From the NCBI GenBank assembly GCA_964016885.1, contig OZ024742.1, forward strand, positions 1,240,001 through 1,304,000: a DNA stretch of 64,000 nucleotides, written 5' to 3'. A program made the translations under genes and the position numbers. The notes below the pieces were generated by a model. It had not been told where the DNA came from. It ran no database searches and saw nothing but the letters and a program-made list of their open reading frames with translations. Origin of the DNA: Eledone cirrhosa. Lineage: Eukaryota. This document shows, in pieces, positions 4,192 through 60,757 of the stretch. The first letter of the stretch is position 1; the number at the start of each line of letters is the position of its first letter.

Positions 4192-7100
4192 TGGTGGTGT
4201 GGTGTTGGTGTGGTGTGGTGTTGGTGTGTTGTAGCGTAGTGTGTTGTAGTGTAGTGTTTTGTAGTGTAGTGTGTTGTAGTGTAGTGTGTTGTAGTGTAGT
4301 GTGTTGTAGTGTAGTGTGTTGTAGTGTAGTGTGTTGTAGTGTAGTGTGTTGTAGTGTAGTGTGTTATAGTGTAGTGTGTTGTAATGTAGTGTGTTGTCGT
4401 GTAGTGTGTTGTAATGTAGTGTGTTGTAATGTAGTGTGTTGTAGTGTAGTGTGTTGTAATGTAGTGTTTTGTAGTGTAGTGTGTTGTAATGTAGTGTGTT
4501 GTCGTGTAGTGTGTTGTAGTGTAGTGTGTTGTAGTGTAGTGTGTTATAGTGTAGTGTGTTGTAATGTAGTGTGTTGTCGTGTAGTGTGTTGTCGTGTAGT
4601 GTGTTGTAATGTAGTGTGTTGTAGTGTAGTGTTGTAATGTAGTGTGTTGTCGTGTAGTGTGTTGTCGTGTAGTGTGTTGTCGTGTCGGTGTCCGTGTCGT
4701 GTCGTGGTGTTGTGGTGTGTGTGGTGGTGTTGTGTTGTAGTGTGTGGTGGTGTGTGGTTTGTAGTGTTGTTGTGGTGTGTTGTGCTGTGTGGTGGTGTAG
4801 TGTTGTGGTGTGTTGTAGTGTGGTCTGTTGTGGTGGTGTGTTGTAATGTAGTGTGGTGGTGGTGTGTGGTGTGGTGTGTTGTAGTGTAGTGTGGTGTGGT
4901 GGTGTGTTGTAATGTAGTGTGGTGTGTAGTGTGGTGCTGTAGTGTAGTGTGGTGTTGTGGTGTAGTGTGGTGTTGTGGTGTAGTGTGGTGTTGTGGTGTA
5001 GTGTGGTGTTGTGGTGTAATGTGGTGTTGTGGTGTAGTGTGGTGTTGTGGTGTAGTGTGGTGTGGTGGTGTAGTGTGGTGTTGCGGTGTAGTGTGGTGTT
5101 GCGGTGTAGTGTGGTGTTTGTGGTGTATTGTGGTGTTGTGGTGTTGTGGTGTAGTGTGGTGTTGTGGTGTAGTGTGGTGTTGTGGTGTAGTGTAGTGTTG
5201 TGGTGTAGTGTGGTGTTGTGGTGTAGTGTGGTGTTGTGGTGTAGTGTGGTGTTGTGGTGTATTGTAGTGTGGTGTATTGTAGTGTGGTGTTGTGGTGTAG
5301 TGTGGTGTTGTGGTGTAGTGTAGTGTTGTGGTGTAGTGTAGTGTTGTGGTGTAGTGTGGTGTGGTGTGGTGTAGTGTGGTGTGGTGTTGTGGTGTAGTGT
5401 GGTGTTGTGTGGTGTAGTGTGGTGTTGTGGTGTAGTGTGGTGTTGTGGTGTAGTGTGGTGTTGTGGTGTAGTGTGGTGTTGTGGTGTAGTGTGGTGTTGT
5501 GGTGTAGTGTGGTGTTGTTGTGTAGTGTGGTGTTGTGGTGTAGTGTGGTGTTGTGTGGTGTAGTGTGGTGTTGTGGTGTAGTGTGGTGTAGTGTGGTGTT
5601 GTGGTGTAGTGTGGTGTTGTGGTGTAGTGTGGTGTTGTGGTGTAGTGTGGTGTATTGTAGTGTGGTGGTGTGGTGTATTGTGGTGTTGTGGTGTAGTGTG
5701 GTGTTGTGATGTACTGTGGTGTTGTGGTGTAGTGTGGTGTTGTGGTGTAGTGTGGTGTTGTGGTGTATTGTAGTGTGGTGTATTGTAGTGTGGTGGTGTG
5801 GTGTAGTGTGGTGTTGTGTGTAGTGTGGTGTTGTGGTGTATTGTAGTGTGGTGGTGTGGTGTAGTGTGGTGTTGTGGTGTATTGTAGTGTGGTGTTGTAG
5901 TGTAGTATAGTGTGGTGTTGTAGTGTAGTATAGTGTGGTGGTGTAGTGTGGTGTTGTGGTGTATTGTAGTGTTGTGGTGTAGTGTGGTGTTGTGGTGTAT
6001 TGTAGTGTTGTGGTGTATTGTAGTGTGGTGGTGTAGTGTGGTGTTGTGTTGTGGTGGTGTGTGGTTTGTAGTGTTGTTGTGGTGTGTTGTGCTGTGTGGT
6101 GGTGTAGTGTTGTGGTGTGTTGTAGTGTGGTCTGTTGTGGTGGTGTGTTGTAATGTAGTGTGGTGGTGGTGTGTGGTGTGGTGTGTTGTAGTGTAGTGTG
6201 GTGTGGTGGTGTGTTGTAATGTAGTGTGGTGTGTAGTGTGGTGCTGTAGTGTAGTGTGGTGTTGTGGTGTAGTGTGGTGTTGTGGTGTAGTGTGGTGTTG
6301 TGGTGTAGTGTGGTGTTGTGGTGTAGTGTGGTGTTGTGGTGTAGTGTGGTGTTGTGGTGTAGTGTGGTGTTGTGGTGTAGTGTGGTGTTGTGGTGTAGTG
6401 TGGTGTTGTGGTGTAGTGTGGTGTTGTGGTGTAGTGTGGTGTTGTGGTGTAGTGTGGTGTTGTGGTGTAGTGTGGTGTGGTGGTGTAGTGTGGTGTTTGT
6501 GGTGTATTGTGGTGTTTGTGGTGTATTGTGGTGTTGTGTAGTGTGGTGTTGTGGTGTAGTGTGGTGTATTGTAGTGTGGTGGTGTGGTGTACTGTGGTGT
6601 TGTGGTGTAGTGTGGTGTTGTGGTGTAGTGTGGTGTTGTGGTGTAGTGTGGTGTTGTGGTGTAGTGTGGTGTGGTGGTGTAGTGTGGTGTGGTGGTGTAG
6701 TGTGGTGTTGTGGTGTAGTGTGGTGTATTGTAGTGTGGTGGTGTGGTGTATTGTGGTGTTGTGGTGTAGTGTGGTGTTGTGGTGTAGTGTGGTGTTGTGG
6801 TGTAGTGTGGTGTTGTGGTGTAGTGTGGTGTGGTGGTGTAGTGTGGTGTGGTGGTGTAGTGTGGTGTTGTGGTGTAGTGTGGTGTTTGTGGTGTATTGTG
6901 GTGTTGTGTAGTGTGGTGTTGTGGTGTAGTGTGGTGTATTGTAGTGTGGTGGTGTGGTGTATTGTGGTGTTGTGGTGTAGTGTGGTGTTGTGGTGTAGTG
7001 TGGTGTTGTGGTGTAGTGTGGTGTGGTGGTGTAGTGTGGTGTGGTGGTGTAGTGTGGTGTTGTGGTGTAGTGTGGTGTTTGTGGTGTATTGTGGTGTTGT

Positions 7101-10100
7101 GTAGTGTGGTGTTGTGGTGTAGTGTGGTGTATTGTAGTGTGGTGGTGTGGTGTATTGTGGTGTTGTGGTGTAGTGTGGTGTTGTGATGTAGTGTGGTGTT
7201 GTGGTGTATTGTAGTGTGGTGTATTGTAGTGTGGTGTATTGTAGTGTGGTGTTGTGGTGTAGTGTGGTGTTGTGTGTAGTGTGGTGTTGTGGTGTAGTGT
7301 GGTGTTGTGGTGTAGTGTGGTGTTGTGGTGTATTGTAGTGTGGTGGTGTGGTGTAGTGTGGTGTTGTGGTGTATTGTAGTGTGGTGTTGTAGTGTAGTAT
7401 AGTGTGGTGTTGTAGTGTAGTATAGTGTGGTGGTGTAGTGTGGTGTTGTGGTGTATTGTAGTGTTGTGGTGTAGTGTGGTGTTGTGGTGTATTGTAGTGT
7501 TGTGGTGTATTGTAGTGTGGTGGTGTAGTGTGGTGTTGTGGTGTAGTGTGTGGTGGTGTGTGGCTTGTAGTGTTGTGGTGGTGTGTGGTTTGTAGTGTTG
7601 TTGTGGTGTGTTGTGCTGTGTGGTGGTGTAGTGTTGTGGTGTGTTGTAGTGTGGTCTGTTGTGGTGGTGTGTTGTAATGTAGTGTGGTGGTGGTGTGTTG
7701 TGTTGTAGTGTAGTGTGGTGTAGTGTGGTGTTGTGGTGTAGTGTGGTGTGGTGGTGTAGTGTGGTGTGGTGGTGTAGTGTGGTGTAGTGTGGTGTAGTGT
7801 GGTGGTGTATTGTGGTGTTGTGTGTAGTGTGGTGTTGTGGTGTAGTGTGGTGTTGTGGTGTAGTGTGGTGTTGTGGTGTAGTGTGGTGTTGTGGTGTAGT
7901 GTGGTGTTGTGTGGTGTGGTGTGGTGTTGTGGTGTAGTGTGGTGTTGTGGTGTAGTGTGGTGTATTGTAGTGTGGTGTATTGTAGGGTGGTGTATTGTGG
8001 TGTTGTGGTGTATTGTGGTGTCGTGGTGTAGTGTGGTGTTGTGGTGTAGTGTGGTGTATTGTAGTGTGGTGGTGTGGTGTATTGTGGTGTTGTGGTGTAG
8101 TGTGGTGTTGTGATGTAGTGTGGTGTTGTGGTGTAGTGTGGTGTTGTGGTGTATTGTAGTGTGGTGTATTGTAGTGTGGTGGTGTGGTGTAGTGTGGTGT
8201 TGTGGTGTAGTGTGGTGTTGTGATGTACTGTGGTGTTGTGGTGTAGTGTGGTGTTGTGGTGTAGTGTGGTGTTGTGGTGTATTGTAGTGTGGTGTATTGT
8301 AGTGTGGTGGTGTGGTGTAGTGTGGTGTTGTGTGTAGTGTGGTGTTGTGGTGTAGTGTGGTGTTGTGGTGTAATGTGGTGGTGTGGTGTAGTGTGGTGGT
8401 GTGGTGTAGTGTGGTGGTGTGGTGTAGTGTGGTGTTGTGGTGTGGTGTAGTGTGGTGCTGTGGTGTAGTGTGGTGTTGTGGTGTATTGTAGTGTGGTGTT
8501 GTAGTGTAGTATAGTGTGGTGTTGTAGTGTAGTATAGTGTGGTGGTGTAGTGTGGTATAGTGTGGTGGTGTAGTGTGGTATAGTGTGGTGGTGTAGTGTG
8601 GTGTTGTGGTGTATTGTAGTGTTGTGGTGTAGTGTGGTGTTGTGGTGTATTGTAGTGTTGTGGTGTATTGTAGTGTGGTGGTGTAGTGTGGTGTTGTGTT
8701 GTGGTGGTGTGTGGTTTGTAGTGTTGTTGTGGTGTGTTGTGCTGTGTGGTGGTGTAGTGTTGTGGTGTGTTGTAGTGTGGTCTGTTGTGGTGGTGTGTTG
8801 TAATGTAGTGTGGTGGTGGTGTGTGGTGTGGTGTGTTGTAGTGTAGTGTGGTGTGGTGTGGTGGTGTGTTGTAATGTAGTGTGGTGTGTAGTGTGGTGCT
8901 GTAGTGTAGTGTGGTGTTGTGGTGTAGTGTGGTGTTGTGGTGTAGTGTGGTGTTGTGGTGTAGTGTGGTGTTGTGGTGTAGTGTGGTGTTGTGGTGTAGT
9001 GTGGTGTTGTGGTGTAGTGTGGTGTTGTGGTGTAGTGTGGTGTTTGTGGTGTATTGTGGTGTTGTGTAGTGTGGTGTTGTGGTGTAGTGTGGTGTATTGT
9101 AGTGTGGTGGTGTGGTGTATTGTGATGTAGTGTGGTGTTGTGGTGTAGTGTGGTGTTGTGGTGTATTGTAGTGTGGTGTATTGTAGTGTGGTGGTGTGGT
9201 GTAGTGTGGTGTTGTGTGTAGTGTGGTGTTGTGGTGTAGTGTGGTGTTGTGGTGTAGTGTGGTGTTGTGGTGTAATGTGGTGGTGTGGTGTAGTGTGGTG
9301 TTGTGGTGTAGTGTGGTGTTGTGGTGTAGTGTGGTGTTGTGGTGTATTGTAGTGTGGTGGTGTGGTGTAGTGTGGTGTTGTGGTGTATTGTAGTGTGGTG
9401 TTGTAGTGTAGTATAGTGTGGTGTTGTAGTGTAGTATAGTGTGGTGGTGTAGTGTGGTGTTGTGGTGTATTGTAGTGTTGTGGTGTAGTGTGGTGTTGTG
9501 GTGTATTGTAGTGTTGTGGTGTATTGTAGTGTGGTGGTGTAGTGTGGTGTTGTGGTGTAGTGTTGTGGTGGTGTGTGGTTTGTAGTGTTGTGGTGGTGTG
9601 TTGTGCTGTGTGGTGGTGTAGTGTTGTGGTGTGTTGTAGTGTGGTCTGTTGTGGTGGTGTGTTGTAATGTAGTGTGGTGGTGGTGTGTTGTGTTGTAGTG
9701 TAGTGTGGTGTGGTGGTGTGTTGTAATGTAGTGTGGTGTGTAGTGTGGTGCTGTAGTGTAGTGTGGTGTTGTGGTGTGTTGTGGTGTAGTGTGGTGTTGT
9801 GGTGTGTTGTGGTGTAGTGTGGTGTATTGTAGTGTGGTGTTGTGGTGTAGTGTGGTGTTGTGGTGTAGTGTGGTGTTGTGGTGTAGTGTGGTGTTGTGGT
9901 GTAGTGTGGTGTTGTGGTGTAGTGTGGTGTTGTGGTGTAGTGTGGTGTTGTGGTGTAGTGTGGTGTGGTGGTGTAGTGTGGTGTGGTGGTGTAGTGTGGT
10001 GTGGTGGTGTAGTGTGGTGTTGTGGTGTAGTGTGGTGTTGTGGTGTAGTGTGGTGTTGTGGTGTAGTGTGGTGTTGTGTGGTGTAGTGTGGTGGTGTAGT

Positions 10101-13100
10101 GTGGTGTTGTGGTGGTGTTGTGGTGTAGTGTGGTGTTGTGGTGTAGTGCGGTGTTGTGGTGTAGTGTGGTATGGTGGTGTAGTGTGGTGTTGTGGTGTAG
10201 TGTGGTGTAGTGTGGTGTTGTGGTGTAGTGTGGTGTAGTGTGGTGTTGTGGTGTAGTGTGGTGTTGTGGTGTAGTGTGGTGTATTGTGGTGTTGTGGTGT
10301 AGTGTGGTGTTGTGGTGTAGTGTGGTGTTGTGGTGTAGTGTGGTGTTGTGGTGTAGTGTGGTGTATTGTAGTGTGGTGGTGTGGTGTATTGTGGTGTTGT
10401 GGTGTAGTGTGGTGTTGTGGTGTAGTGTGGTGTTGTGGTGTAGTGTGGTGTAGTGTGGTGTTGTGGTGTAGTGTGGTGTAGTGTGGTGTTGTGGTGTAGT
10501 GTGGTGTGGTGGTGTAGTTTGGTGTGGTGGTGTAGTGTGGTGTAGTGTGGTGTAGTGTGGTGTTGTGGTGTATTGTGGTGTTGTGTGTAGTGTGGTGTTG
10601 TGGTGTAGTGTGGTGTTGTGGTGTAGTGTGGTGTTGTGGTGTAGTGTGGTGTTGTGGTGTAGTGTGGTGTTGTGTTGTGGTGTAGTGTGGTGTTGTGGTG
10701 TAGTGTGGTGTATTGTAGTGTGGTGTATTGTAGGGTGGTGTATTGTGGTGTTGTGGTGTATTGTGGTGTCGTGGTGTAGTGTGGTGTTGTGGTGTAGTGT
10801 GGTGTATTGTAGTGTGGTGGTGTGGTGTATTGTGGTGTTGTGGTGTAGTGTGGTGTTGTGATGTAGTGTGGTGTTGTGGTGTAGTGTGGTGTTGTGGTGT
10901 AGTGTGGTGTTGTGGTGTATTGTAGTGTGGTGTATTGTAGTGTGGTGGTGTGGTGTAGTGTGGTGTTGTGGTGTAGTGTGGTGTTGTGATGTACTGTGGT
11001 GTTGTGGTGTAGTGTGGTGTTGTGGTGTAGTGTGGTGTTGTGGTGTATTGTAGTGTGGTGTATTGTAGTGTGGTGGTGTGGTGTAGTGTGGTGTTGTGTG
11101 TAGTGTGGTGTTGTGGTGTAGTGTGGTGTTGTGGTGTAGTGTGGTGTTGTGGTGTAATGTGGTGGTGTGGTGTAGTGTGGTGGTGTGGTGTAGTGTGGTG
11201 GTGTGGTGTAGTGTGGTGTTGTGGTGTGGTGTAGTGTGGTGCTGTGGTGTATTGTAGTGTGGTGTTGTAGTGTAGTATAGTGTGGTGTTGTAGTGTAGTA
11301 TAGTGTGGTGGTGTAGTGTGGTATAGTGTGGTGGTGTAGTGTGGTGTTGTGGTGTATTGTAGTGTGGTGTTGTAGTGTAGTATAGTGTGGTGTTGTAGTG
11401 TAGTATAGTGTGGTGGTGTAGTGTGGTATAGTGTGGTGGTGTAGTGTGGTGTTGTGGTGTATTGTAGTGTTGTGGTGTAGTGTGGTGTTGTGGTGTATTG
11501 TAGTGTTGTGGTGTATTGTAGTGTGGTGGTGTAGTGTGGTGTTGTGTTGTGGTGGTGTGTGGTTTGTAGTGTTGTTGTGGTGTGTTGTGCTGTGTGGTGG
11601 TGTAGTGTTGTGGTGTGTTGTAGTGTGGTCTGTTGTGGTGGTGTGTTGTAATGTAGTGTGGTGGTGGTGTGTGGTGTGGTGTGTTGTAGTGTAGTGTGGT
11701 GTGTTGTAGTGTAGTGTGGTGTGGTGTGGTGGTGTGTTGTAATGTAGTGTGGTGTGTAGTGTGGTGCTGTAGTGTAGTGTGGTGTTGTGGTGTAGTGTGG
11801 TGTTGTGGTGTAGTGTGGTGTTGTGGTGTAGTGTGGTGTTGTGGTGTAGTGTGGTGTTGTGGTGTAGTGTGGTGTTGTGGTGTAGTGTGGTGTTGTGGTG
11901 TAGTGTGGTGTTTGTGGTGTATTGTGGTGTTGTGTAGTGTGGTGTTGTGGTGTAGTGTGGTGTATAGTAGTGTGGTGGTGTGGTGTATTGTGATGTAGTG
12001 TGGTGTTGTGGTGTAGTGTGGTGTTGTGGTGTATTGTAGTGTGGTGTATTGTAGTGTGGTGGTGTGGTGTAGTGTGGTGTTGTGTGTAGTGTGGTGTTGT
12101 GGTGTAGTGTGGTGTTGTGGTGTAGTGTGGTGTTGTGGTGTAATGTGGTGGTGTGGTGTAGTGTGGTGTTGTGGTGTAGTGTGGTGTTGTGGTGTAGTGT
12201 GGTGTTGTGGTGTATTGTAGTGTGGTGGTGTGGTGTAGTGTGGTGTTGTGGTGTATTGTAGTGTGGTGTTGTAGTGTAGTATAGTGTGGTGTTGTAGTGT
12301 AGTATAGTGTGGTGGTGTAGTGTGGTGTTGTGGTGTATTGTAGTGTTGTGGTGTAGTGTGGTGTTGTGGTGTATTGTAGTGTTGTGGTGTATTGTAGTGT
12401 GGTGGTGTAGTGTGGTGTTGTGGTGTAGTGTTGTGGTGGTGTGTGGTTTGTAGTGTTGTGGTGGTGTGTGGTTTGTAGTGTTGTTGTGGTGTGTTGTGCT
12501 GTGTGGTGGTGTAGTGTTGTGGTGTGTTGTAGTGTGGTCTGTTGTGGTGGTGTGTTGTAATGTAGTGTGGTGGTGGTGTGTTGTGTTGTAGTGTAGTGTG
12601 GTGTGGTGGTGTGTTGTAATGTAGTGTGGTGTGTAGTGTGGTGCTGTAGTGTAGTGTGGTGTAGTGTGGTGTTGTGGTGTAGTGTGGTGTTGTGGTGTAG
12701 TGTGGTGTTGTGGTGTAGTGTGGTGTTGTGGTGTAGTGTGGTGTTGTGGTGTAGTGTGGTGTTGTGGTGTAGTGTGGTGTTGTGGTGTAGTGTGGTGTGG
12801 TGGAGTAGTGTGGTGTGGTGGTGTAGTGTGGTGTGGTGGTGTAGTGTGGTGTTGTGGTGTAGTGTGGTGTTTGTGGTGTATTGTGGTGTTGTGGTGTAGT
12901 GTGGTGTTGTGGTGTAGTGTGGTGTTGTGGTGTAGTGTGGTGTTGTGTGGTGTAGTGTGGTGGTGTAGTGTGGTGTTGTGGTGGTGTTGTGGTGTAGTGT
13001 GGTGTTGTGGTGTAGTGTGGTGTTGTGGTGTAGTGTGGTGTTGTGGTGTAGTGTGGTGTTGTGGTGTAGTGTGGTGTTGTGGTGTAGTGTGGTGTTGTGT

Positions 13101-16100
13101 GGTGTAGTGTGGTGTTGTGGTGTAGTGTGGTGTTGTGGTGTAGTGTGGTGTATTGTGGTGTTGTGGTGTAGTGTGGTGTTGTGGTGTAGTGTGGTGTTGT
13201 GGTGTAGTGTGGTGTATTGTAGTGTGGTGGTGTGGTGTATTGTGGTGTTGTGGTGTAGTGTGGTGTTGTGGTGTAGTGTGGTGTAGTGTGGTGTTGTGGT
13301 GTAGTGTGGTGTAGTGTGGTGTTGTGGTGTATTGTAGTGTGGTGTATTGTAGTGTGGTGGTGTGGTGTAGTGTGGTGTTGTGGTGTAGTGTGGTGTTGTG
13401 GTGTATTGTAGTGTGGTGTTGTAGTGTAGTATAGTGTGGTGGTGTAGTGTGGTGTTGTGGTGTATTGTAGTGTTGTGGTGTAGTGTGGTGTTGTGGTGTA
13501 GTGTGGTGTTGTGTTGTGGTGTAGTGTGGTGCTGTGGTGTAGTATGGTGTTGTGGTGTAGTGTGGTGTTGTGGTGTATTGTAGTGTGGTGGTGTAGTGTG
13601 GTGTTGTGGTGTATTGTAGTGTGGTGGTGTATTGTAGTGTGGTGGTGTAGTGTGGTGTTGTGTTGTGGTGTAGTGTGGTGCTGTGGTGTAGTGTGGTGTT
13701 GTGGTGTAGTGTGGTGTTGTGGTGTATTGTAGTGTGGTGGTGTAGTGTGGTGTTGTGGTGTATTGTAGTGTGGTGGTGTAGTGTGGTGGTGTGGTGTAGT
13801 GTGGTGTTGTGGTGTAGCGTGGTGTATTGTAGTGTGGTGGTGTGGTGTAGTGTGGTGTTGTGGTGTATTGTAGTGTGGTGGTGTGATGTATTGTAGTGTG
13901 GTGTATTGTAGTGTGGTGGTGTGGTGTTGTAGTGTAGTATAGTGTGGTGGTGTAGTGTGGTGTTGTGGTGTAGTGTAGTGTTGTGGTGTAGTGTGGTGTT
14001 GTGGTGTAGTGTGGTGTTGTAGTGTATTGTAGTGTTGTGGTGTAGTGTGGTGTTGTGGTGTAGTGTGGTGTTGTAGTGTATTGTAGTGTGGTGGTGTAGT
14101 GTGGTGTTGTGTTGTGGTGTAGTGTGGTGTTGTGGTGTAGTGTGGTGTTGTGGTGTAGTGTGGTGTTGTGGTGTAGTGTGGTATTGTGGTGTAGTGTGGT
14201 GTTGTGGTGTAGTGTGGTGTTGTGGTGTAGTGTGGTGTTGTGGTGTAGTGTGGTGTTGTGGTGTATTGTAGTGTGGTGGTGCAGTGTGGTGTTGTGGTGT
14301 AGTGTGGTGGTGTGGTGTAGTGTGGTGTTGTGGTGTATTGTAGTGTGGTGGTGTAGTGTGGTGTTGTGGTGTAGTGTGGTGTAGTGTGGTGTTGTGGTGT
14401 AGTGTGGTGTTGTGGTGTAGTGTGGTGTTGTGGTGTAGTGTGGTGTTGTGGTGTATTGTAGTGTGGTGTATTGTAGTGTGGTGGTGTGGTGTAGTGTGGT
14501 GTAGTGTGGTGTTGTGGTGTATTGTAGTGTGGTGTGGTCTGGTGTTGTGGTGTAGTGTAGTGTGGTGTTGTGGTGTAGTCTGGTGTTGTGGTGTAGTGTA
14601 GTGTGGTGTTGTGGTGTAGTGTGGTGTTGTGGTGTAGTGTGGTGTTGTGGTGTAGTGCGGTGTTGTGGTGTGGTGTTGTGGTGTATTGTGGTGTTGTGGT
14701 GTAGTGTGGTGTTGTGGTGTAGTGTGGTGTTGTGGTGTAGTGTGGTGTTGTGGTGTATTGTAGTGTGGTGTATTGTAGTGTGGTGTTGTGGTGTAGTCTG
14801 GTGTTGTGGTGTAGTGTGGTGTTGTGTGGTGTTGTGGTGTAGTGTGGTGTTGTGTGGTGTTGTGGTGTAGTGTGGTGTTGTGGTGTAGTGTGGTGTTGTG
14901 TGGTGTTGTGGTGTAGTGTGGTGTTGTGGTGTTGTGTGGTGTTGTGGTGTAGTGTGGTGTTGTGTGGTGTAGTGTGGTGTTGTGGTGTAGTGTGGTGTTG
15001 TGGTGTAGTGTGGTGTTGTGGTGTAGTGTGGTGTTGTGGTGTAGTGTGGTGTTGTGGTGTAGTGTGGTGTTGTGGTGTAGTGTGGTGTAGTGTGGTGGTG
15101 TAGTGTGGTGTTGTGGTGTAGTGGTGTAGTGTGGTGTGGTGGTGTAGTGTGGTGTTGTGGTGTAGTGTGGTGTTGTGGTGTAGTGTGGTGTTGTGGTGTA
15201 GTGTGGTGTTGTGGTGTATTGTAGTGTGGTGTATTGTAGTGTGGTGTTGTGGTGTAGTGTGGTGTTGTGTGGTGTAGTGTTGTGGTGTAGTGTGGTGGTG
15301 TAGTGTGGTGTTGTGGTGTAGTGTGGTGTTGTGGTGTAGTGTTGTGTTGTGGTGTAGTGTGGTGTTGTGTGGTGTAGTGTGGTGTTGTGGTGTAGTGTGG
15401 TGTTGTGGTGTAGTGTGGTGTTGTGGTGTAGTGTAGTGTGGTGTTGTGGTGTAGTGTGGTGTTGTGGTGTAGTGTGGTGTATTGTGGTGTTGTGGTGTAG
15501 TGTGGTGTTGTGGTGTAGTGTGGTGTTGTGGTGTAGTGTGGTGTTGTGGTGTAGTGTGGTGTTGTGGTGTAGTGTGGTGTATTGTAGTGTGGTGGTGTGG
15601 TGTATTGTGGTGTTGTGGTGTAGTGTGGTGTTGTGGTGTAGTGTGGTGTTGTGGTGTATTGTAGTGTGGTGTATTGTAGTGTGGTGGTGTGGTGTAGTGT
15701 GGTGTTGTGTGTAGTGTGGTGTTGTGTGTAGTGTGGTGTTGTGGTGTAGTGTGGTGTTGTGGTGTAGTGTGGTGTTGTGGTGTAATGTGGTGGTGTGGTG
15801 TAGTGTGGTGTTGTGGTGTAGTGTGGTGTTGTGGTGTAGTGTGGTGGTGTGGTGTAGTGTGGTGTTGTGGTGTGTGGTGGTGTGGTGTAGTGTGTTGTTG
15901 TGGTGTATTGTAGTGTGGTGTTGTAGTGTAGTATAGTGTGGTGGTGTAGTGTGGTGTTGTGGTGTATTGTAGTTTTGTGGTGTAGTGTGGTGTTGTGGTG
16001 TATTGTAGTGTTGTGGTGTATTGTAGTGTGGTGGTGTAGTGTGGTGTTGTGTTGTGGTGTAGTGTGGTGCTGTGGTGTAGTGTGGTGTTGTGGTGTAGTG

Positions 16101-17345
16101 TGGTGTTGTGGTGTATTGTAGTGTGGTGGTGTAGTGTGGTGTTGTGTTGTGGTGTAGTGTGGTGCTGTGGTGTAGTGTGGTGTTGTGGTGTAGTGTGGTG
16201 TTGTGGTGTAGTGTGGTGTTGTGGTGTATTGTAGTGTGGTGTTGTGGTGTATTGTAGTGTGGTGGTGTAGTGTGGTGGTGTGGTGTAGTGTGGTGTTGTA
16301 GTGTAGTATAGTGTTGTGGTGTAGTATAGTTTTGTGGTGTAGTGTGGTGGTGTATTGTAGTGTGGTGTAGTGTGGTGTTGTAGTGTAGTATAGTGTTGTG
16401 GTGTAGTGTGGTGGTGTATTGTAGTGTGGTGGTGTGGTAGTGTAGTATAGTATGGTGGTGTAGTGTGGTGTTGTGGTGTATTGTAGTGTGGTGGTGTAGC
16501 GTGGTGGTGTATTGTAGTGTAGTGTAGTATAGTGTGGTAGTGTAGTATAGTGTTGTGGTGTAGTGTGGTGGTGTAGTGTGGTGTTGTGTAGTGTTGTAGT
16601 GTATTGTAGTGTGGTGGAGTGTGTTGTAGTGTAGTATAGTGTGGTGGTGTAGTGTGGTGTTGTGGTGTATTGTAGTGTTGTAGTGTATTGTAGTGTGGTG
16701 GTGCGGTGTGGTGTTGTAGTGTAGTATAGTGTGGTGGTGTAGTGTGGTGTTGTGGTGTATTGTAGTGTTGTAGTGTATTGTAGTGTGGTGGTGTGGTGTT
16801 GTAATGTAGTATAGTGTGGTGGTGTAGTGTGGTGTTGTGGCGTATTGTAGTGTTGTAGTGTGGTGGTGTGGTGTTGTAGTGTAGTATAGTGTGGTGGTGT
16901 AGTGTGGTGTTGTGGTGTATTGTAGTGTTGTAGTGTGGTGGTGTGGTGTTGCAGTGTAGTATAGTGTGGTGGTGTAGTGTGGTGTTGTGGTGTATTGTAG
17001 TGTTGTAGTGTATTGTAGTGTGGTGGTGTGTGTTGTAGTGTAGTATAGGGTGGTGGTGTAGTGTGGTGTTGTGGTGTATTGTAGTGTTGTAGTGTATTGT
17101 AGTGTGGTGGTGTGGTGTTGTAGTGTAGTATAGTGTGGTGGTGTTGTGGTGTAGTGTGGTGGTGTGGTGTATTGTAGTGTTGTAGTGTATTGTAGTGTGG
17201 TGGTGTGGTGTTGTAGTGTAGTATAGTGTGGTGGTGTAGTGTGGTGTTGTGGTGTAGTATAGTGTGGTAGTGTAGTATAGTGTTGTAGTGTAGTATAGTG
17301 TTGTGGTGTAGTGTGGTGTTGTGGTGTATTGTAGTGTTGTAGTGT
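4192..17345 (+). repeat. 13-kb complex GT-rich satellite; 15-bp unit GTAGTGTAGTGTGTT at left, dominant 18-bp unit GTGTAGTGTGGTGTTGTG, higher-order blocks
   Basis: Almost no C on + strand; built from GTGTA/GTGTG/GTGTT/GTG modules. Confidence 0.97.
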
Positions 17346-17382
17346 ATATAATACGTGTATTATTATACATGTATGTATATAA

Positions 17383-17567
17383 TTGTTTCTACTTTAGGCA
17401 CAAGGCCAGCAATTACCCAGTATATTACTGGTACTTTATTTTATCGACCCCGTAAGGATGAAAGGCAAAGTTAACCTCGGCGGGATTTGAACTGAGATCA
17501 TAAAGGGACGTAACTCTATGCTTCAAAGCATGGTGTCCGACTCTACCGATACTGCCAATCCACCGTT
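17383..17567 (-). mobile_element. tRNA-derived SINE (MetaSINE-like)
   Basis: Homologous to 570-746. Confidence 0.8.
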
Positions 17568-19729: not shown

Positions 19730-19787
19730 ATACCTGATGATATCACCGGATTAATACGGAACCCGGTCATTGAAATGATCATAGTAT
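19730..19787 (+). ncRNA. Minimal type-I hammerhead ribozyme (family A copy 2)
   Basis: atac-CTGATGA-accgg..ccggt-GAAA-tgatca-TA^-gtat. Confidence 0.75.
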
Positions 19788-21226: not shown

Positions 21227-21229
21227 GCA

Positions 21230-21512
21230 TTAGAAAGTGAGGTTTTTTTTACAAAATGAAAAATAACCGAGGTGTCCTACACGAGTGAAAGTATAAAGAA
21301 AAAGAGATGAAATCGAAAATGCAACTGAAGTCTTATTTTTTTTTTTTAAATATATATATTTATTTGGTTCCTTTACCGGTTTCGCAGTTCTTCTGCTTTT
21401 TGAAAAGCAGAAGAACTGCGAAACCGGTAAAGGAACCAAATAAATATATATATTTAAAAAATAAAAAATAAATAAGACTCCAGTTGCATTTTCGATTTCA
21501 TCTCTTTTTTTT
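21230..21512. mobile_element. Fold-back element centred at ~21400 on a hammerhead motif
   Basis: ~100-bp inverted arms 21300-21400 / 21403-21510; (T)TGAAAA-gcag-aagaa-ctgc-GAAA-ccgg-TA-aagg; flanked by (TA)n. Confidence 0.75.
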
Positions 21513-33726: not shown

Positions 33727-33772
33727 TGCTAACATTGTTTCATCCGCACTATAAGTGGGACTCATCAGAGCA
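33727..33772 (-). ncRNA. Type-I hammerhead ribozyme motif
   Basis: tgct-CTGATGA-gtcccact-tat-agtgcggat-GAAA-caatg-TT^-agca; within AT-rich element ~33586-34687. Confidence 0.65.
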
Positions 33773-39129: not shown

Positions 39130-39514
39130 CATATATGTATGTACGTATACACACATACATTTAAGTAAGTGCCGTACTAGGAGTGAGAAATGAAATTTTG
39201 TTTTCATTTTATTTCAACTTATATATACATATATATACATATACATATACATACATATATATATACATATATATACATATATATATACATATATATACAT
39301 ATATATATATATACACATATATATACATATATATATACATACACATATATATACATATATATATACATATATATACACATATATATACATATATATACAC
39401 ATATATATACATATATATACATATATATATATACATATACATATATACATATACATATATATATATACATATACATATACATATATACATATACATATAC
39501 ATATATACATATAC

Positions 39515-40225: not shown

Positions 40226-40385
40226 CATATCTATACATATATATATATACATATATATGTAGGAGGTGAGTTTTATTGTAGAACAATAAAGCAATGCAGA
40301 TATCGGATAAGAAGCACTCTACAGTTTGTAGGACTGGAGTATACATAATATATAAGATCAAAAGATGGTTAAAGGAGTTCCATGT

Positions 40386-40454
40386 ATTTTATTATGTGCA
40401 TTTCAAAAACAAACATCATCATGCAATAATATTTGTGTTTTCATCAGATAAAAC
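40386..40454 (-). ncRNA. Type-I hammerhead (mirror copy)
   Basis: gttttat-CTGATGA-long stem II-GAAA-tgcaca-TA^-ataaaat. Confidence 0.7.
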
Positions 40455-40576
40455 AGGAGAACATGATATGAAGGCTAAAAAACACTTGTGGATATTGCAG
40501 TTTTAAATCAACATATATGTTGATTTATAACTGCACTATCCACAAGTGTTTTTTAGCCTTCATATCATGTTCTCCT

Positions 40577-40645
40577 GTTTTATCTGATGAAAACACAAAT
40601 ATTATTGCATGATGATGTTTGTTTTTGAAATGCGCATAATAAAAT
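40577..40645 (+). ncRNA. Type-I hammerhead ribozyme
   Basis: gttttat-CTGATGA-aaacacaaatattatt-gcat-gatgatgtttgttttt-GAAA-tgcgca-TA^-ataaaat. Confidence 0.8.
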
Positions 40646-40707
40646 ACATGGAACTCCTTTAACCATCTTTTGATCTTATATATTTTATACATATATATAT
40701 ATATACA

Positions 40708-43700
40708 TATCATCATCATCACCGTTTTACGTCCGTTCTTCCACGCTAGCATGGGTTAGACGGGTTGTCCTGTTGTGGGCAGTGTCTGGTCGGCTGACCA
40801 TGCCTTGCTCATACAGGAACTGATCTGGCTTGATTTCTACAGCTGGATGCCCTTCCTAACACCAACCTCATTTACAGTGAGTGCTGGGTGCTTTTTCGTG
40901 GCGCCTACACGTCCACTTTACAGTGTGGGCTGGGTGCTTTTTTGCCGTGGCACCTCCACGACCACCTTGCGGTGGGGGGGGGGGCATATTGTTTATATGC
41001 TTCAGCATGTACCCATGGGAGGTCGGGTACCCTGTATTACTGTGTGACGCCAGAAGTCACGGTCGTGTGTCATTGACTTTGAGAGGTGTAGTTGGGTAAG
41101 GTCGGCTTTTATCACCTCATCCCAAGTCATCTTGGGTCTCCCCACTCCGCGGTTTCCATCAACTTCTAGTGCTCTGCACCTTTTTATGCAGCTGTCATCC
41201 TTCATACGCATCACATGTCCATACCAGCGTAACCGCCTCTCCTGCACGCAGCATTTGATTCCTCTTATGCTCAGTCTCTCTCTCAATTCCCTTATGCTTT
41301 GTCGTTCACGTATATTACTGTTACACATCCATCGGAGCATGCAGGCTTCGTTTCTCTCTAATCTACGTAAGTCTTCCACCTTCAGCGCCCAGGTCTCACT
41401 ACCATGCAACATCGCTGTTCGGATACACGCATCATACAGTCTGCCTTTCATTCTGAGGGAGAAGCCTTTTGCAGCTAGCAGTGGTAGTAGTTCCCTAAAC
41501 TTCTTCCATCCCGTTCTTACCCTAGTTATTGTACTTTCTGAGCACCCACCTCCGTTGCTAATTCGGTCACCTAGGTAGCAGAAGCTGTCTACTGTTTCTA
41601 CAGGGCCCTCCCAGAGATTGGTGGTACTTGTTTCCTGTGGCTGTTTGCTTGCTGTTTCAGCACAGCTGCTGCATGTGAATCCTACATTCTTAATTAAGCT
41701 TCCTGAGATCCCGCTACATCTCTTGTGTACCCATTGTTTGCATTTGGGGCAAAGAATGGAGTTCCTACCTACACCTTTCCTACATACTGAGCAAGGCCAT
41801 TTCCCTGAGGGGATCTGGGTTCTGTTTTCTCGTCTACTTATAAGGACCTTAGTCTTTGTCATGTTGACTTTGAGGCCCTTTCTCTCTAGTCCCTGCTTCC
41901 AGGTTTGGAATTTATTCTCTAGTTCTACCATAGATTCAGCTATGAGTGCGAGGTCATCAGCATACAGGAGTTCCCATGGGCATCCGGTCTTAAACTCCTC
42001 CGTTATTGCCTGCAGGACTATGATGAACAGGAGAGGGCTAAGAACAGAGCCCTGGTGGACCCCAACCTGTACGCTAAATTCCTCGCTATACTCATTGCCA
42101 ATCCTAACTTTGCTGACTGCTCCCCTATACATGGCTTGTACCGCTTTCACAAGCCATTCATCTACTCCTAGTTTTCTAAGAGCCCACCAGATTACTGCAC
42201 GTGGAACTCTGTCAAAGGCTTTCTCAAGGTCGACAAATGCCAAGTAGAGTGGCTTACTTTTAGCTAGGTACTTTTCCTGTAATTGCCTCACAAGGAAGAG
42301 CGCATCAGTGGTGCCTTTCCCTGGTACAAACCCAAATTGCATCTCGTCTATATTCACCCGGTCCCTAATCAGCTGTGCTATAACTCTTTCTGTTACTTTC
42401 ATGACCTGGTCCATCAACTTTATACCTCTATAGTTTCCTCTATCTAGTGCATCGCCTTTACCTTTGTAGCAGTTGACAATGATGCTACTGCACCAATCTT
42501 TTGGTATGGCCCCCTCTAGTATTACCTGGTTAACGATACGTGTGGTTATAGTGTGACCTACAGACCCAGATGCCTTCAGCATCTCGGCAGCTATACCCGA
42601 TGGACCGGTTGCCTTCCCTATCTTCATATCTCTGATTGCCTTACTTACTACGCTGCCGCTGACTTGTACTGCTGGTCCCTCTATAGGGTCTACGTGGGGT
42701 AGGGTCTCTTCTTCCCATGCATTCTCCTCATTTAGTAATCTATCATAATGACTCTTCCATGCATCTTTCTTCTCAGCACTTGTGAGGGCAAGCTCACCTT
42801 TATCATTCCGGATACACTTCTCTCCAATGACATCACAACTATCTCTGACACACTGCCTCGCAATCTTGAATACCTCCTGTTTCTGGTCCTCACGTTGTAA
42901 AACATGCTTGAATTTTCTATCCTCTGCTTCCCTCCTAGCTAAGTATACTTGTCGCCTAGCTTCCCTCTTGGTCTCTATGTAATGTACCCTGCTCCCCCCG
43001 TTCTTCCATTCTTTCCATGCCTGTCTCTTGGCCTTGACTGCTTCATCTACCTTATTGTTCCACCACCAAGTCACTCTCCTCCTGCTTGAGGTCTTACTCC
43101 AGCCACAAACCTCATCCGTCGCCTCTAGTAAGTTATTTTTTAGGAACTCCCAGTTCTCTTCTACGTTAAATGTCTCTATCTGTTCTTCTTTACTGTCGTA
43201 GGCGTTGAGTAAAATATCTTTAAATCTGTTACTGGTTGAGGGGACTTTCAGCTTCCAGATCTTTCTTCTCCAGGTTGGCCTCTGTTTCAGGGCTCGTCTA
43301 GTTCTGACCGTGAGGTCGCTGACAACTAAGCTATGTTGGGATGTACATTCCTCACTAGGGAAGGCTTTTGTGTTTACGACCGTCCATCTGTCACGTCCTC
43401 TGATGAGGATAAAATCTAACTGACTAGAGTGCTCCCCTGATCTATAGGTGATCAGGTGGTTGTCGGGTTTTTTAAAGTTTGTGTTACATATCGACATGTC
43501 ATTGGCGTCGCAGAATTCTAGAAGTCTGAATCCTTCCTCATTCCTTGTGCCAACTCCATGGCCTCCATGTACTCTATTGAAGCCGTCGCAGTGTTTACCT
43601 ACGTGTCCGTTAAAATCTCCTGCAATGATTAGGAAGTCCTTGTCGTCTGTTAGAGCAGTAGTGTGTATTAGGGACTCGTAAAACCTATCCTTAAGTTCGT

Positions 43701-44106
43701 CTGGCAGCCCCGATTGGGGTGCGTAAGCTGATATTATTGTGGTAATTGTCTTATTCAGGACTAGTCTGAGTTTAATGATTCTTGCATTTACCCTGTACAC
43801 TGAGATTACTTTATCTACCCACTTGTCAGCTAATAGTATACCTACACCACCCATCCCATCGTCATTTCCCACCCAGAAAAATTTGTAGCACTGGCTTTTT
43901 CCTACAAGGACTCTAGCAGACCCTCCTCTCCATCTAGTCTCTTGCACACAGCATACATCAACTTCCTTTCGCTCTAGCATTTCTACGATTTCTCCTGCTC
44001 TTCCTTTCATTGAGCCTACATTGATGGTACCAACTCGGAGTTTTGGGCATTTGTCGACACTCGTAGGGGAGGGTCTCTGGGTTGGCGCTTCACGTGGGTG
44101 CTTGGT
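40708..44106 (-). mobile_element. Near full-length RTE-clade LINE, subfamily B
   Basis: APE+RT ORF, 3' UTR, (GAT)n tail; 5' end runs into (TA)n. Confidence 0.95.
41002..44106 (-). CDS. RTE polyprotein: APE endonuclease + reverse transcriptase + PHD-like finger (~1030 aa open, native start probably truncated; first internal ATG 44010)
   Basis: GTINV, VQETRW, SAYAPQ, AGDFNGH, LDFIL, SQHSLV (APE); NYRGI, QFGF, FVDLEKAFD, QGSVLSP, YADD, FCYLG (RT); no stops. Confidence 0.93.
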   Translation of the reverse strand, partial: TKHPREAPTQRPSPTSVDKCPKLRVGTINVGSMKGRAGEIVEMLERKEVDVCCVQETRWRGGSARVLVGKSQCYKFFWVGNDDGMGGVGILLADKWVDKVISVYRVNARIIKLRLVLNKTITTIISAYAPQSGLPDELKDRFYESLIHTTALTDDKDFLIIAGDFNGHVGKHCDGFNRVHGGHGVGTRNEEGFRLLEFCDANDMSICNTNFKKPDNHLITYRSGEHSSQLDFILIRGRDRWTVVNTKAFPSEECTSQHSLVVSDLTVRTRRALKQRPTWRRKIWKLKVPSTSNRFKDILLNAYDSKEEQIETFNVEENWEFLKNNLLEATDEVCGWSKTSSRRRVTWWWNNKVDEAVKAKRQAWKEWKNGGSRVHYIETKREARRQVYLARREAEDRKFKHVLQREDQKQEVFKIARQCVRDSCDVIGEKCIRNDKGELALTSAEKKDAWKSHYDRLLNEENAWEEETLPHVDPIEGPAVQVSGSVVSKAIRDMKIGKATGPSGIAAEMLKASGSVGHTITTRIVNQVILEGAIPKDWCSSIIVNCYKGKGDALDRGNYRGIKLMDQVMKVTERVIAQLIRDRVNIDEMQFGFVPGKGTTDALFLVRQLQEKYLAKSKPLYLAFVDLEKAFDRVPRAVIWWALRKLGVDEWLVKAVQAMYRGAVSKVRIGNEYSEEFSVQVGVHQGSVLSPLLFIIVLQAITEEFKTGCPWELLYADDLALIAESMVELENKFQTWKQGLERKGLKVNMTKTKVLISRRENRTQIPSGKWPCSVCRKGVGRNSILCPKCKQWVHKRCSGISGSLIKNVGFTCSSCAETASKQPQETSTTNLWEGPVETVDSFCYLGDRISNGGGCSESTITRVRTGWKKFRELLPLLAAKGFSLRMKGRLYDACIRTAMLHGSETWALKVEDLRRLERNEACMLRWMCNSNIRERQSIRELRERLSIRGIKCCVQERRLRWYGHVMRMKDDSCIKRCRALEVDGNRGVGRPKMTWDEVIKADLTQLHLSKSMTHDRDFWRHTVIQGTRPPMGTC

Positions 44107-44149
44107 ATATACATATATATACATATATATACATATATATATATACATA

Positions 44150-44340
44150 TACGTAGGTCACGGGTTGAGTCGGGGATAACCACAGTAAGTAAGGTACTCA
44201 ATACATGGCAGAGTAAAATTTTTTATTTTATGGAAGGAGCTTCTACAGCACTAGTACTCTTTCATTCTGTGCTTCCTGAAGATTTCATCTGAATGAAACA
44301 GTACTAGTCCTGTAGAAGCTCCTTCTATAAAATAAAAAAT
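44150..44340. mobile_element. Short fold-back hammerhead element
   Basis: Inverted arms ~44218-44267 / 44291-44340; (TA)n flanks. Confidence 0.7.
44271..44319 (+). ncRNA. Type-I hammerhead ribozyme
   Basis: gcttc-CTGAAGA-tttc-atct-gaat-GAAA-cag-tactagtc-ctg-TA^-gaagc. Confidence 0.72.
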
Positions 44341-47979: not shown

Positions 47980-48621
47980 TAAAAACAAATAACGAAACGA
48001 AATTAAATTTTGTTTCGTTTGTAACTCACTTTTGTATGACTGACTCTTAAACAATTAAGTTAAAAATGTACATCCACATATGTACACGTGTGTGTATTCA
48101 TATGCATACTAGTATTTCAGTATACATATGTGGATGTACATTTTTAACTTAATTGTTTAAGTTTAAGTCATACAAAAGTGAGTTACAAACGAAACAAAAT
48201 TTAATTTCGTTTCGTTATTTGTTTTTATCGTCTCCGTTGAACCGGTACGTACTCACGCTCTATGCAAATTGGTCTGCCCACTACTAATTTTCATAGAAAA
48301 AGCATATAACGATATGTGCTTTCACGATTCTCTAGAAAGGCCGGAAGATAGGTAAATATTGCTGATGAGATGTAACAACATCGAAACTAGTCCAATATTC
48401 CTTGTCTGGCTTTCTGAAGAATAGAGGAAAGGTGTTTCCTCAAAAACCAGTATGACTCTAAAAACCGGTTTGTCTGTGTGTTTACATACAGAATAGCTGG
48501 ACACTCACAGTAAAGTAACCAGTGAAAAACTCGGTACATCTACATATGTACACGTGTGTGTATTCATATGCATACTAGTATTTCAGTATACATATGTGGA
48601 TGTACATTTTTAACTTAATTG
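47980..48621 (+). mobile_element. Retrozyme-like element: 466-nt monomer with ~80-nt terminal direct redundancy plus inverted 5' arm
   Basis: 48076-48155 repeated at 48542-48621; 47980-48084 inverted relative to 48123-48228. Confidence 0.8.
48355..48399 (+). ncRNA. Canonical minimal type-I hammerhead ribozyme
   Basis: aatattg-CTGATGA-gatg-taacaa-catc-GAAA-ctag-TC^-caatatt; perfect stems I and II. Confidence 0.9.
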
Positions 48622-49335: not shown

Positions 49336-49797
49336 ACATATATATGTATATACATATATTAACATATACATATACATATATTTACATATACATATATATA
49401 CATATATATATACATATATATACATATACATATATATATACATATATATATACATATATATATATATACATATACATATATATACATATATATATACATA
49501 CATATATATATACATACATATACATATACATATATATACATATATATATACATATATATACATATATATATACATATATATACATATATATATACATACA
49601 TATATACATATATATACATATATATACATACATATATATACATATATATATACATATATATACATATATATATACATATATATATACATACATATACATA
49701 TATATATATATACATATATATACATATATATATACATATATATACATATATATATACATATATATACATATATACATATATATACATATATATATAC

Positions 49798-49832
<35 letters not shown>

Positions 49833-50123
49833 CATATATATACATATATATATACATATATATATACACATATATATACATATATATACATATATATACA
49901 TATATATACACATATATATACATATATATACATATATATATACATATATATACATATATATACATATATATATACATATATATACATATATATACATATA
50001 TATACATATATATATACATATATATACATATATATACATATATATATACATATATATACATATATATATACATATATATATACATATATATATACATATA
50101 TATACATATATATACATATATAC

Positions 50124-50164
<41 letters not shown>
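49336..50164. repeat. Interrupted (TA)n microsatellite
   Basis: Direct. Confidence 0.95.
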
Positions 50165-50168
<4 letters not shown>

Positions 50169-50282
50169 TTGAAAAAAATGAAAACGAAATTTCATTTCTC
50201 ACTCTTAGTATGGCACTTACTTAAATGTAAGTATGTATGTATACGTACATACATATATGTATACAGACGTACAGTAGCAAGC

Positions 50283-50313
<31 letters not shown>

Positions 50314-50901
50314 TATATACACATATGCATACAGGTACACATACATATATGCACGCATCAGTTTAGCCTACGTTTATTATAACGCCGGCCGCTTTGTTCG
50401 TTTGTTTGTCAACAAAGCGAACAGCCTGAATTTATGCCATACGGTGTTAAGGCAACCACGTCACCTTTTTGTTCAACACTGACACAGGAACGATGTACAC
50501 ATTTAAGTAAGTGCCATACTAAGAGTGAGAAATGAAATTTCGTTTTCATTTTTTTCAACTTATCGTTTTCGGTATGCCTGACCGATTTAACTCACTCTAT
50601 ATGCAAAGTAGGCTGCTCAGCCGTTAATTTTCATAAGGAAAGTATATACTTTCGAACGTTCAACTATCTGGCAGATGGGTAAACGGTGCTGATGATAGCT
50701 AACAAGCTTGAAACTAGTACATCGTTCCTGTGTCAGTGTTGAACAAAAAGGTGACGTGGTTGCCTTAACACCGTATGGCATAAATTCAGGCTGTTCGCTT
50801 TGTTGACAAACAAACGAACAAAGCGGCCGGCGTTATAATAAACGTAGGCTAAACTGATGCGTGCATATATGTATGTGTACCTGTATGCATATGTGTATAT
50901 A

Positions 50902-50934
<33 letters not shown>

Positions 50935-50990
50935 GCTTGCTACTGTACGTCTGTATACATATATGTATGTACGTATACATACATACTTAC

Positions 50991-50992
<2 letters not shown>
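50165..50992 (+). mobile_element. Retrozyme-like element: ~490-nt monomer (50499-50992) plus inverted, circularly permuted copy (50165-50498)
   Basis: Left arm reverse complement = 50717-50992 followed by 50503-50562. Confidence 0.85.
50682..50726 (+). ncRNA. Minimal type-I hammerhead ribozyme
   Basis: aacggtg-CTGATGA-tagc-taacaa-gctt-GAAA-ctag-TA^-catcgtt. Confidence 0.85.
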
Positions 50993-51037
<45 letters not shown>

Positions 51038-51076
51038 TGAAGTATAAGAATCAAAGAACTGTTCAAAACATTATTG

Positions 51077-51123
51077 TGCTTACAGCTGTTTCCTCCAAAC
51101 CGAGGTTTGGATTCTTCGGAGCA
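51077..51123 (-). ncRNA. Hammerhead motif (mirror of 51908)
   Basis: Reverse complement of 51908-51954. Confidence 0.65.
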
Positions 51124-51907
51124 ATTTATTAATGCATGGACAGTTATATGACCTCCTTTTCAGCCGAGAGACATACCAATACATATTCAAACATTGATAC
51201 ATATTCAAACATTGTGGGTCAACATTCATTACAGAATTTAGAGTGGCAGTACACACTTCGAGATTACATTTATATTAATAGGTACAATCAAAAATCAAAG
51301 ATATAGGTTAAAGTACAACATGAAGATAAGTGGTTATATAGTGCAAATGTTATATGTGTGGCACGCATGTGCGTCTTGTTTATATAGTGTGGCAGAGAGA
51401 TATGTGTGGTAGAGGCACTTAGGTAGGTAAATAAGAGTGTTAGGTTGGTAGATCTGGTGGCAAAGTCTTTATATGATTGATATAGTCTGTGTGTGGAGAA
51501 ATATTATAAGCATTAAAGATAGTGCAAGCATTAAAAGTGTTATAAGTATTGGAGATGCACAGCGCAGGGATGTCAAGATCTACCAACCTAACACTCTTAT
51601 TTACCTACCTAAGTGCCTCTACCACACATATCTCTCTGCCACACTATATAAACAAGACGCACATGCGTGCCACACATATAACATTTGCACTATATAACCA
51701 CTTATCTTCATGTTGTACTTTAACCTATATCTTTGATTTTTGATTGTACCTATTAATATAAATGTAATCTCGAAGTGTGTACTGCCACTCTAAATTCTGT
51801 AATGAATGTTGACCCACAATGTTTGAATATGTATCAATGTTTGAATATGTATTGGTATGTCTCTCGGCTGAAAAGGAGGTCATATAACTGTCCATGCATT
51901 AATAAAT

Positions 51908-51954
51908 TGCTCCGAAGAATCCAAACCTCGGTTTGGAGGAAACAGCTGTAAGCA
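51908..51954 (+). ncRNA. Hammerhead motif (CCGAAGA variant)
   Basis: tgct-CCGAAGA-atccaaacc-tc-ggtttggag-GAAA-cagctg-TA^-agca. Confidence 0.68.
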
Positions 51955-52158
51955 CAATAATGTTTTGAACAGTTCTTTGATTCTTATACTTCATATAACT
52001 GCTCTGTAAATCATCTGATGTTTTTACATTGAGCTACTTAACTTACTGGTAATAAGGTAGTAATACATCACTGCCTACCACTATTTAGGGTGTGTGTAAA
52101 ATACTTACAACTGCTTAAGGTTTTGTGTTTACATAACCATAAATAGTATAACTAATAC

Positions 52159-58283: not shown

Positions 58284-58456
58284 AGATCAAAAGATGGTTA
58301 AAAGAGTTCCATGTATTTTATTATGCGCATTTCAAAAACAAATATCATCATGCAATAACATTTGCGTTTTCGTCAGATAAAATAGGGAGACATGATATGA
58401 AGGTTAAAACACACTTGTGAATAGTGCAGTTTTAAATCAACATAAAACTCACCTCC

Positions 58457-60704: not shown

Positions 60705-60757
60705 ATTTTATTATACATATTTCAGAGGTACAACAGTACGTCCTCATCAGATAAAAT
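60705..60757 (-). ncRNA. Type-I hammerhead in Penelope pLTR
   Basis: attttat-CTGATGA-ggacgtac-tgtt-gtacctct-GAAA-tatgta-TA^-ataaaat. Confidence 0.78.

Follow-up and report, generated by a model that had tools for sequence, protein, structure and literature searches.

Insertion ends of a 490-nt hammerhead retrozyme family and the case for Penelope-type mobilisation

The window, that is the whole stretch of 64,000 nucleotides analysed here, carries at 50165-50992 a complete repeat unit lying head-to-head with an inverted copy, the 5′ end of which falls beside the predicted cleavage site of a hammerhead ribozyme. The question raised by this locus is whether the junction is a footprint of cleavage in vivo, with one cDNA copied from a circle or uncleaved multimer and the other from ribozyme-cleaved linear RNA as the initial annotation proposed, or whether it reflects the way in which the element is inserted.

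The window copy, its ribozyme and a promoter candidate

The monomer is 490 nt long and occupies 50499-50988 of the + strand, and the adjoining 50989-50992 (ACAT) is the start of the following turn. Together they form a tail-less arm (50499-50992) that stops at the short fixed end, located inside the loop of a hairpin with 7 predicted base pairs. The inverted, tailed arm is found at 50168-50498 on the − strand, its left limit being 50168 and not 50165, and spans unit positions 219-490 followed by 1-61; its 5′ end is the inversion junction and its 3′ end (..TTTCAAC) is the long fixed end. The tail of 57 nt (50168-50224, − strand, unit 5-61) lies between both fixed 3′ ends and is present in the tailed arm only. 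In their common stretch the two arms are identical save for one TA slip. An internal TA-rich stretch of variable length is located at 50860-50938 (+ strand, unit 362-440), and the insertion is flanked by (TA)n-type target microsatellites at 49383-50166 and 50993-51037. A short 5′-truncated stub of another subfamily at 39137-39219 (+ strand), previously delimited as 39131-39222, ends at the long end within (TA)n and likewise spans the unit end-start junction, and the proposal that the unit is complete, its end being continued by its own start in the inverted copy and in this stub, was upheld. That the + arm measures exactly one turn looks accidental, 0 of 93 tail-less arms starting at unit 1-8.

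With a GC content of 0.357 and a longest Met-ORF of 68 aa over two turns, the unit is non-coding, below 45% GC and without an LTR, as retrozymes are; the RT and GIY-YIG ORF by which an autonomous Penelope-like element is recognised is absent from it. The predicted type I hammerhead is at 50682-50726 (+ strand), with stem I at 50682-88/50720-26, CUGAUGA at 50689-95, stem II at 50696-50709, GAAAC at 50710-14 and a helix III consisting of the palindrome ACUAGU, and the predicted cut follows GUA (50717-19), after unit position 221 (50719). The Rfam HH9 match of the window copy is weak (18.5 bits, E 0.043, below the gathering score of 52), and the MFE fold of the ribozyme region was no better than that of shuffles (z −0.67). 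The hammerhead fold is nevertheless judged real despite the weak match from the covariation of stems I and II between sister families, in which both sides of several pairs are changed, and from the invariant core. The exact 27-mer core occurs 11,603 times in the 3.0-Gb animal assembly G000 and its control 0 times, which is far beyond chance, and dispersed tandem arrays of up to 16 turns are found on many contigs. Of the 13 positions in the ribozyme core, 0 show recurrent variants, compared with 80 among all 351 positions (p about 0.035); within the core only the tolerated position N7 varies, and unit 208-252 is free of recurrent variants. Such conservation points indirectly to selection acting in source copies, either for cleavage or for binding by protein, and it is this, not the inversion junction, that lends indirect support to cleavage in vivo. 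By the sequence-level definition, the element is a young, non-coding, 490-nt non-LTR retrozyme, and its earlier classification as such is borne out by the type I hammerhead, the tandem units and the lack of coding capacity. A dead ribozyme in every second unit was not supported as the cause of periodic arrays, as L311 alternates irregularly, the change is present in both L314 units and a core change affects just 1 of 6 units in L270.

A U6-like internal promoter candidate, a motif match, is located at 50601-50648 (+ strand) and consists of an ATGCAAA(G/T)TAG box at 50601-11 and TATATA at 50643-48. The corresponding ATGC(A/T)AAT(G/T)AG is found at −76 to −78 in 3/3 independent U6 loci and is absent in the examined U2 loci. 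In both retrozyme families the box is followed by a TATA-like element 42 nt later, versus 46-48 in U6, and the alignment of the whole region to one U6 upstream region did not score above shuffles. The upstream box of this genome's U6 genes (L331-L333) is common to both retrozyme units, together with the TATA. Some U6 copies in the array on contig C19 of G000 (L337, L340, L342) have an insertion of ~190 nt between the TATA box and the gene, parting the upstream box from the start. The youngest subfamily carries a T7 run; such a run would be expected to stop Pol III and is therefore at odds with a U6-type promoter unless read through. Tandem hammerhead repeats with an internal promoter have parallels in newt satellite 2 and the schistosome satellite, as cited in the available text of PMC2220036, where the promoter is snRNA-type in the newt and Pol III in the schistosome, whereas that of the 490-nt unit is a motif match to the genome's U6 box only.

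5′ ends at the predicted cleavage site

To keep copies truncated at the cut in the sample, loci were picked by their 3′ ends. For the long end the first 90 of 469 matches were taken; for the short end, with 1,498 matches, 70 loci came from the first 74 in the list. All of these loci are on contigs C1-C2. Each arm was aligned with the natural unit that fitted it best. After 4/160 failures and the removal of 2 duplicates, 154 loci remained. For six arms the fetched sequence was too short to reach the end, and the 50/244 ends that fell in the internal TA stretch were set aside, leaving 194 mapped 5′ ends.

Only 3/194 of these 5′ ends are at most 3 nt from the cut, versus 3.3 expected (p 0.64; 95% interval 0.3-4.5%), and their overall distribution does not depart from uniform (KS p 0.67, 194 ends). 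A first pass over 90 loci had given 2/111 ends near the cut versus 1.9 expected. At the scissile bond itself 314 read-throughs and 3 stops were counted, a stop rate of 0.95% per pass against a background of 1.0%. The peak at the cut that had been set beforehand as the test across genomic copies is thus missing. The 5′ ends are random across copies, and at the level of DNA this is therefore the outcome that the initial annotation itself had named as contrary to its reading.

At the window locus, the inverted arm does begin where it was said to, within 3 nt of the cut, at GUA (50717), and the position is confirmed; as a mark of cleavage it is not supported by the counts above. The simplest reading of the inversion junction is GGAACGATG-TAC joined to ACATTTAAG, in which GUA, 3 nt upstream of the scissile bond, is included in the arm. 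A 3′ product of the cut would lack this GUA. An additional 2-nt slip would put the start exactly at the cut, which is possible and less simple. Copying of the inverted arm from linear RNA cut by the ribozyme, and of its partner from a circle or multimer, with the junction as a mark of cleavage in vivo, can draw on this proximity and on a ribozyme that looks conserved, but the flat 5′ ends, the background stop rate at the cut and the result for the sister family described below (1/57 ends near the cut versus 0.9 expected, in a sample biased to core-holding copies) all speak against it, as does the element of PMC11167929, for which the available text gives no reads ending at the cut. Nor do the two arms point to two kinds of RNA, since they differ in their 3′ ends, at two fixed start sites, and have one haplotype in common. 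As a general rule the cleaved-RNA arm is largely refuted, and as an account of this family it is very improbable; the start of the window copy beside the cut is most likely due to chance.

Reciprocal 3′ ends in this and related families

An adjacent inverted arm was found at 96/148 loci, head-to-head. Within these 96, arms anchored at the long end had a short-ended partner in 32 and arms anchored at the short end had a long-ended partner in 42, and pairs with ends of the same kind numbered 0; partners ended elsewhere in 14, most of them interrupted or ending within the internal TA stretch, and in 8 the fetched sequence broke off first. In 74/88 resolved pairs one arm accordingly ends at unit ~61 and the other at ~4, and the window copy, with its tailed left arm and tail-less right arm, fits this rule. 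The fixed ends of the insertions are 3′ ends and the 5′ ends are scattered. Partner ends, on which no TA criterion had been imposed, run into TA repeats; for the anchored ends TA was part of the search pattern. In public-run contigs, too, the two fixed ends occur with TA repeats after them, as loose ends or joints; none of the contigs listed bridges the inversion junction of the window, which is uninformative. L023, which was not part of the sample, is an exception in that both its arms are tailed; they belong to different subfamilies.

Junction overlaps were counted in 47/74 pairs, and overlaps of at least 4 nt in 19/74. Reiterated short template segments or long homopolymer runs are seen at the junctions of L052, L077, L088, L069 and L196, which suggests realignment and stutter of the RT. 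Tailed arms 52-66 nt long, with 5′ ends at the other start site, make up 7/77 versus 1, 2, 0 and 3 in the neighbouring 15-nt bins; by position this pile-up is weak (8/101 versus 3.9, p 0.044) and was partly noticed after looking. The tailed arms of L035, L115, L053, L163, L214, L093, L196 and L184 comprise little beyond the tail and have their stop at the other start site. Such arms might arise, on weak statistics, if two RTs collided on the same RNA.

The same arrangement is seen in a sister family (family 2) with a 466-nt unit, represented in the window by a head-to-head insertion at 47982-48621 with one arm tailed and the other not. Its hammerhead (48344-48415) matches Rfam HH9 with 38.9 bits, and 1,664 exact cores were counted in G000, with GUC or GUU at the cut and a tail of about 75 nt. 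The two families are distantly homologous and the ribozyme core is kept; the reciprocal tail rule for twin arms was found in 22/24 checked insertions of family 2.

Elements with a coding capacity of their own show a comparable layout. The long ORFs found in G000, which has 10,596 first-look GIY-YIG candidates, carry RT, a CX4CxxC linker and GIY-YIG, a combination given as the Neptune/Nematis pattern in the available text of PMC8557442. L146 and L155, 2 of 20 fetched long-ORF loci, are head-to-head pairs in (TA)n of which just one arm bears a tail, 50-60 nt long, and a head-to-head pair of 3′ ends of the same autonomous Neptune-like Penelope family as L146, compared by eye, is present in the window at 21228-21512, again with one arm tailed and the other not. 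As at 21228-21512, inverted insertions lying head-to-head in (TA)n and having unequal arms are also found at 51038-52158 and 40258-40685, the latter with hammerhead-like cores on both strands. Other hammerhead-like cores (CUGANGA...GAAA) at 297-338, 19734-19775, 33738-33768, 44276-44298, 58330-58376 and 60720-60750 probably derive from further Penelope-related repeats. Elsewhere the window contains a 26-nt tandem repeat (1700-3770) and a 13-kb strand-skewed, GT-rich satellite of pentanucleotide type (4150-17400).

The resemblance extends to published accounts, as far as the text available for PMC8557442, PMC3846280 and PMC11167929 goes. Neptune-type Penelope elements also form 5′-truncated partial tandems with a head-to-head inverted, 5′-truncated copy, and have in common with the retrozyme a tail at one end that is bounded by two internal sites of RT initiation, a preference for (TA)n, which applies to Naiad as well, and a type I hammerhead. 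In vitro, a Penelope-type RT starts at two such adjacent sites, both strands are cut and extended, a dimer is predicted, the ribozyme is dispensable and unprocessed RNA serves as the main substrate (PMC11167929). Since no start-site difference between the strands was seen in that system, the rule of one site per arm is drawn from genomic copies only. The retrozyme differs in having no ORF, a canonical hammerhead where that of Penelope is minimal, and arms of up to 16 identical turns; its tail is 57 nt, against about 75 in family 2 and 30-40 in Neptune-type Penelope elements, and is reciprocal within each inverted insertion, whereas the tail on one inverted pLTR is merely optional in PMC3846280. 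No nucleotide similarity was found between the unit and 40 GIY-YIG loci and 15 Penelope 3′ regions, a small sample of the 10,596 candidates. Taken over these features, a Penelope-type mobilisation of the 490-nt family is highly probable.

The template, the alternatives and what the insertions may record

The claim that the template was a circle or an uncleaved multimer was substantiated by the arrays of up to 16 turns and by the 61/250 arms that cross the cut site at least twice. The arms of one insertion show a median divergence of 0.9% versus 4.0% to arms elsewhere; in 61/63 pairs they are closer than the median, and in 35 no arm elsewhere is nearer. In 40 arrays of at least three turns, 25 variants are fixed in every turn of exactly one array, T63A for instance in all 16 turns of both arms of L204. 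Turn-by-turn mirroring between arms is absent from these 40 arrays, equal turns being no more alike than unequal ones (p 0.90). The locus L323 (G000:C1:125825300-125834000) consists of a strictly alternating A/B dimer with 7 units per inverted arm in the same phase; its A-runs differ at each pass (15, 15, 22, 18 and 13, 44, 15, 25), and at the hairpin of the short site the starting points of the two arms are no more than 3 nt apart. The shared haplotype, the private variants present in all turns and the L323 dimer fit repeated copying of one small circle. Arms of different haplotypes do occur (L023, L270, L054, L229), as does turnover of arrays at the DNA level, seen as a 6-unit block duplication in L270, a 4-unit one in L264 and irregular alternation in L311, and such turnover can homogenise turns without a circle. 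It is quite probable that both arms derive from one molecule or one source, and there is a leaning, less marked, towards a circular over a linear multimeric template.

The main competitor to a circle is Penelope-type twin priming on linear uncleaved multimers, with arrays later homogenised or extended by unequal exchange and circles taking no part in the spread. The block duplications in L270 and L264 would suit it, the equal length of the L323 arms fits a finite linear template or a fold-back as well as a circle, and unprocessed RNA was the main substrate in vitro in the available account of PMC11167929. It would have to accommodate private variants fixed in all turns of both inverted arms and unit differences that are unmirrored between arms, and the conservation of the core is hard to explain if cleavage is never needed; it is considered unlikely, though clearly less so than the other alternatives. 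Fold-back, in which the first cDNA primes itself and is copied back to give the inverted arm, draws on the frequent junction overlaps, on the symmetry of L323 and on the self-priming from palindromes at inverted junctions that is proposed in the available text of PMC3846280, but it requires the tail-less arm to be contained within the tailed one. The tailed arm is the shorter in 37/74 pairs and fold-back is therefore excluded as the rule; the 5′ positions of the two arms are moreover no closer than chance (at most 10 nt apart in 6/74 versus 3.8). It is refuted for at least half of the insertions, possible for the few symmetric ones and, as a general account, highly unlikely. A different mobiliser might be sought in the RTE-type LINE that is abundant in the window, where an intact-looking 1,051-aa frame with endonuclease, RT and PHD finger lies at 41002-44157 (− strand), likewise in (TA)n, together with many truncated relatives; alternatively the family could be a plain satellite or an assembly fold-back artefact. 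Yet the two fixed ends, the one-sided tail and the head-to-head arms match the genome's Penelope elements, arm lengths, ends and flanks differ in a manner unlike read fold-backs, and the fixed ends with their TA repeats recur in the public-run contigs, which leaves these readings scarcely credible.

The preferred reading, likely on the sequence evidence, is that a Neptune-type Penelope RT-endonuclease uses the two ends of a cleaved TA microsatellite as primers on a single RNA, probably a circle, with two fixed start sites 57 nt apart. The array would be transcribed from the internal U6-like promoter, and hammerhead cleavage and ligation would yield monomer, sometimes dimer, circles. A dimer of the Penelope protein would then initiate two cDNAs, one at unit ~61-65 and one within the loop of the hairpin at ~3-8, each cDNA would round the template over a random distance, straight through the re-ligated cut site, and the two cDNA 3′ ends would be joined, often via short complementary stretches, to give the inversion junction. 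Twin priming of LINE-1 is similar in that each target strand primes a cDNA and the products are joined head-to-head with microhomology. In LINE-1 the second start varies and there is no overlap between arms; the retrozyme has two fixed starts, and the same sequence is copied into each arm.

Animal non-LTR retrozymes, in the available text of PMC7229834 (Cervera & de la Pena 2020) and bioRxiv 10.64898/2026.07.22.740005 (Li, Clavereau & Pollet), are likewise non-coding, low-GC tandem units in thousands of copies, each with a type I hammerhead and a short palindromic helix III; the unit of 490 nt compares with 170-400 in the former and 51-972 in the latter. Both propose Penelope helpers from co-occurrence or pLTR similarity and circles as templates for tandem cDNA, and unlike the Xenopus families, the 490-nt family has no sequence link to a Penelope pLTR that we could find. 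Mapped insertion ends, with arms lying head-to-head in a (TA)n target and stopping at two fixed 3′ positions in reciprocal fashion, were not found in the published retrozyme descriptions as far as these were available. In the literature searched, subscription journals and supplements aside, no report was found that maps retrozyme insertion ends or states a reciprocal tail rule, and ribozymes go unmentioned in the available text of PMC13282606.

The movement of retrozymes and the inverted, one-tailed copies of Penelope are both stated as open in the text available from PMC7229834, PMC8557442 and PMC11167929. This family provides thousands of very young, near-identical insertions with mappable ends, which makes both questions testable, and the prediction is sharp: a 490-nt RNA with two start sites at a distance of 57 nt, of which each arm uses one, and a single template haplotype. 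Tentatively, and short of an even chance, the insertions may be the genomic record of a Penelope reaction on a parasitic, ribozyme-made circle, in which the subunits of the dimer take one start site each, hence exactly one tail per inverted insertion, and in which the element's own U6-like promoter and a two-site signal would suffice to hijack the enzyme. If true, this would account for the long-puzzling inverted copies of Penelope and for its tails on one side only, and would also tell what mobilises animal retrozymes.
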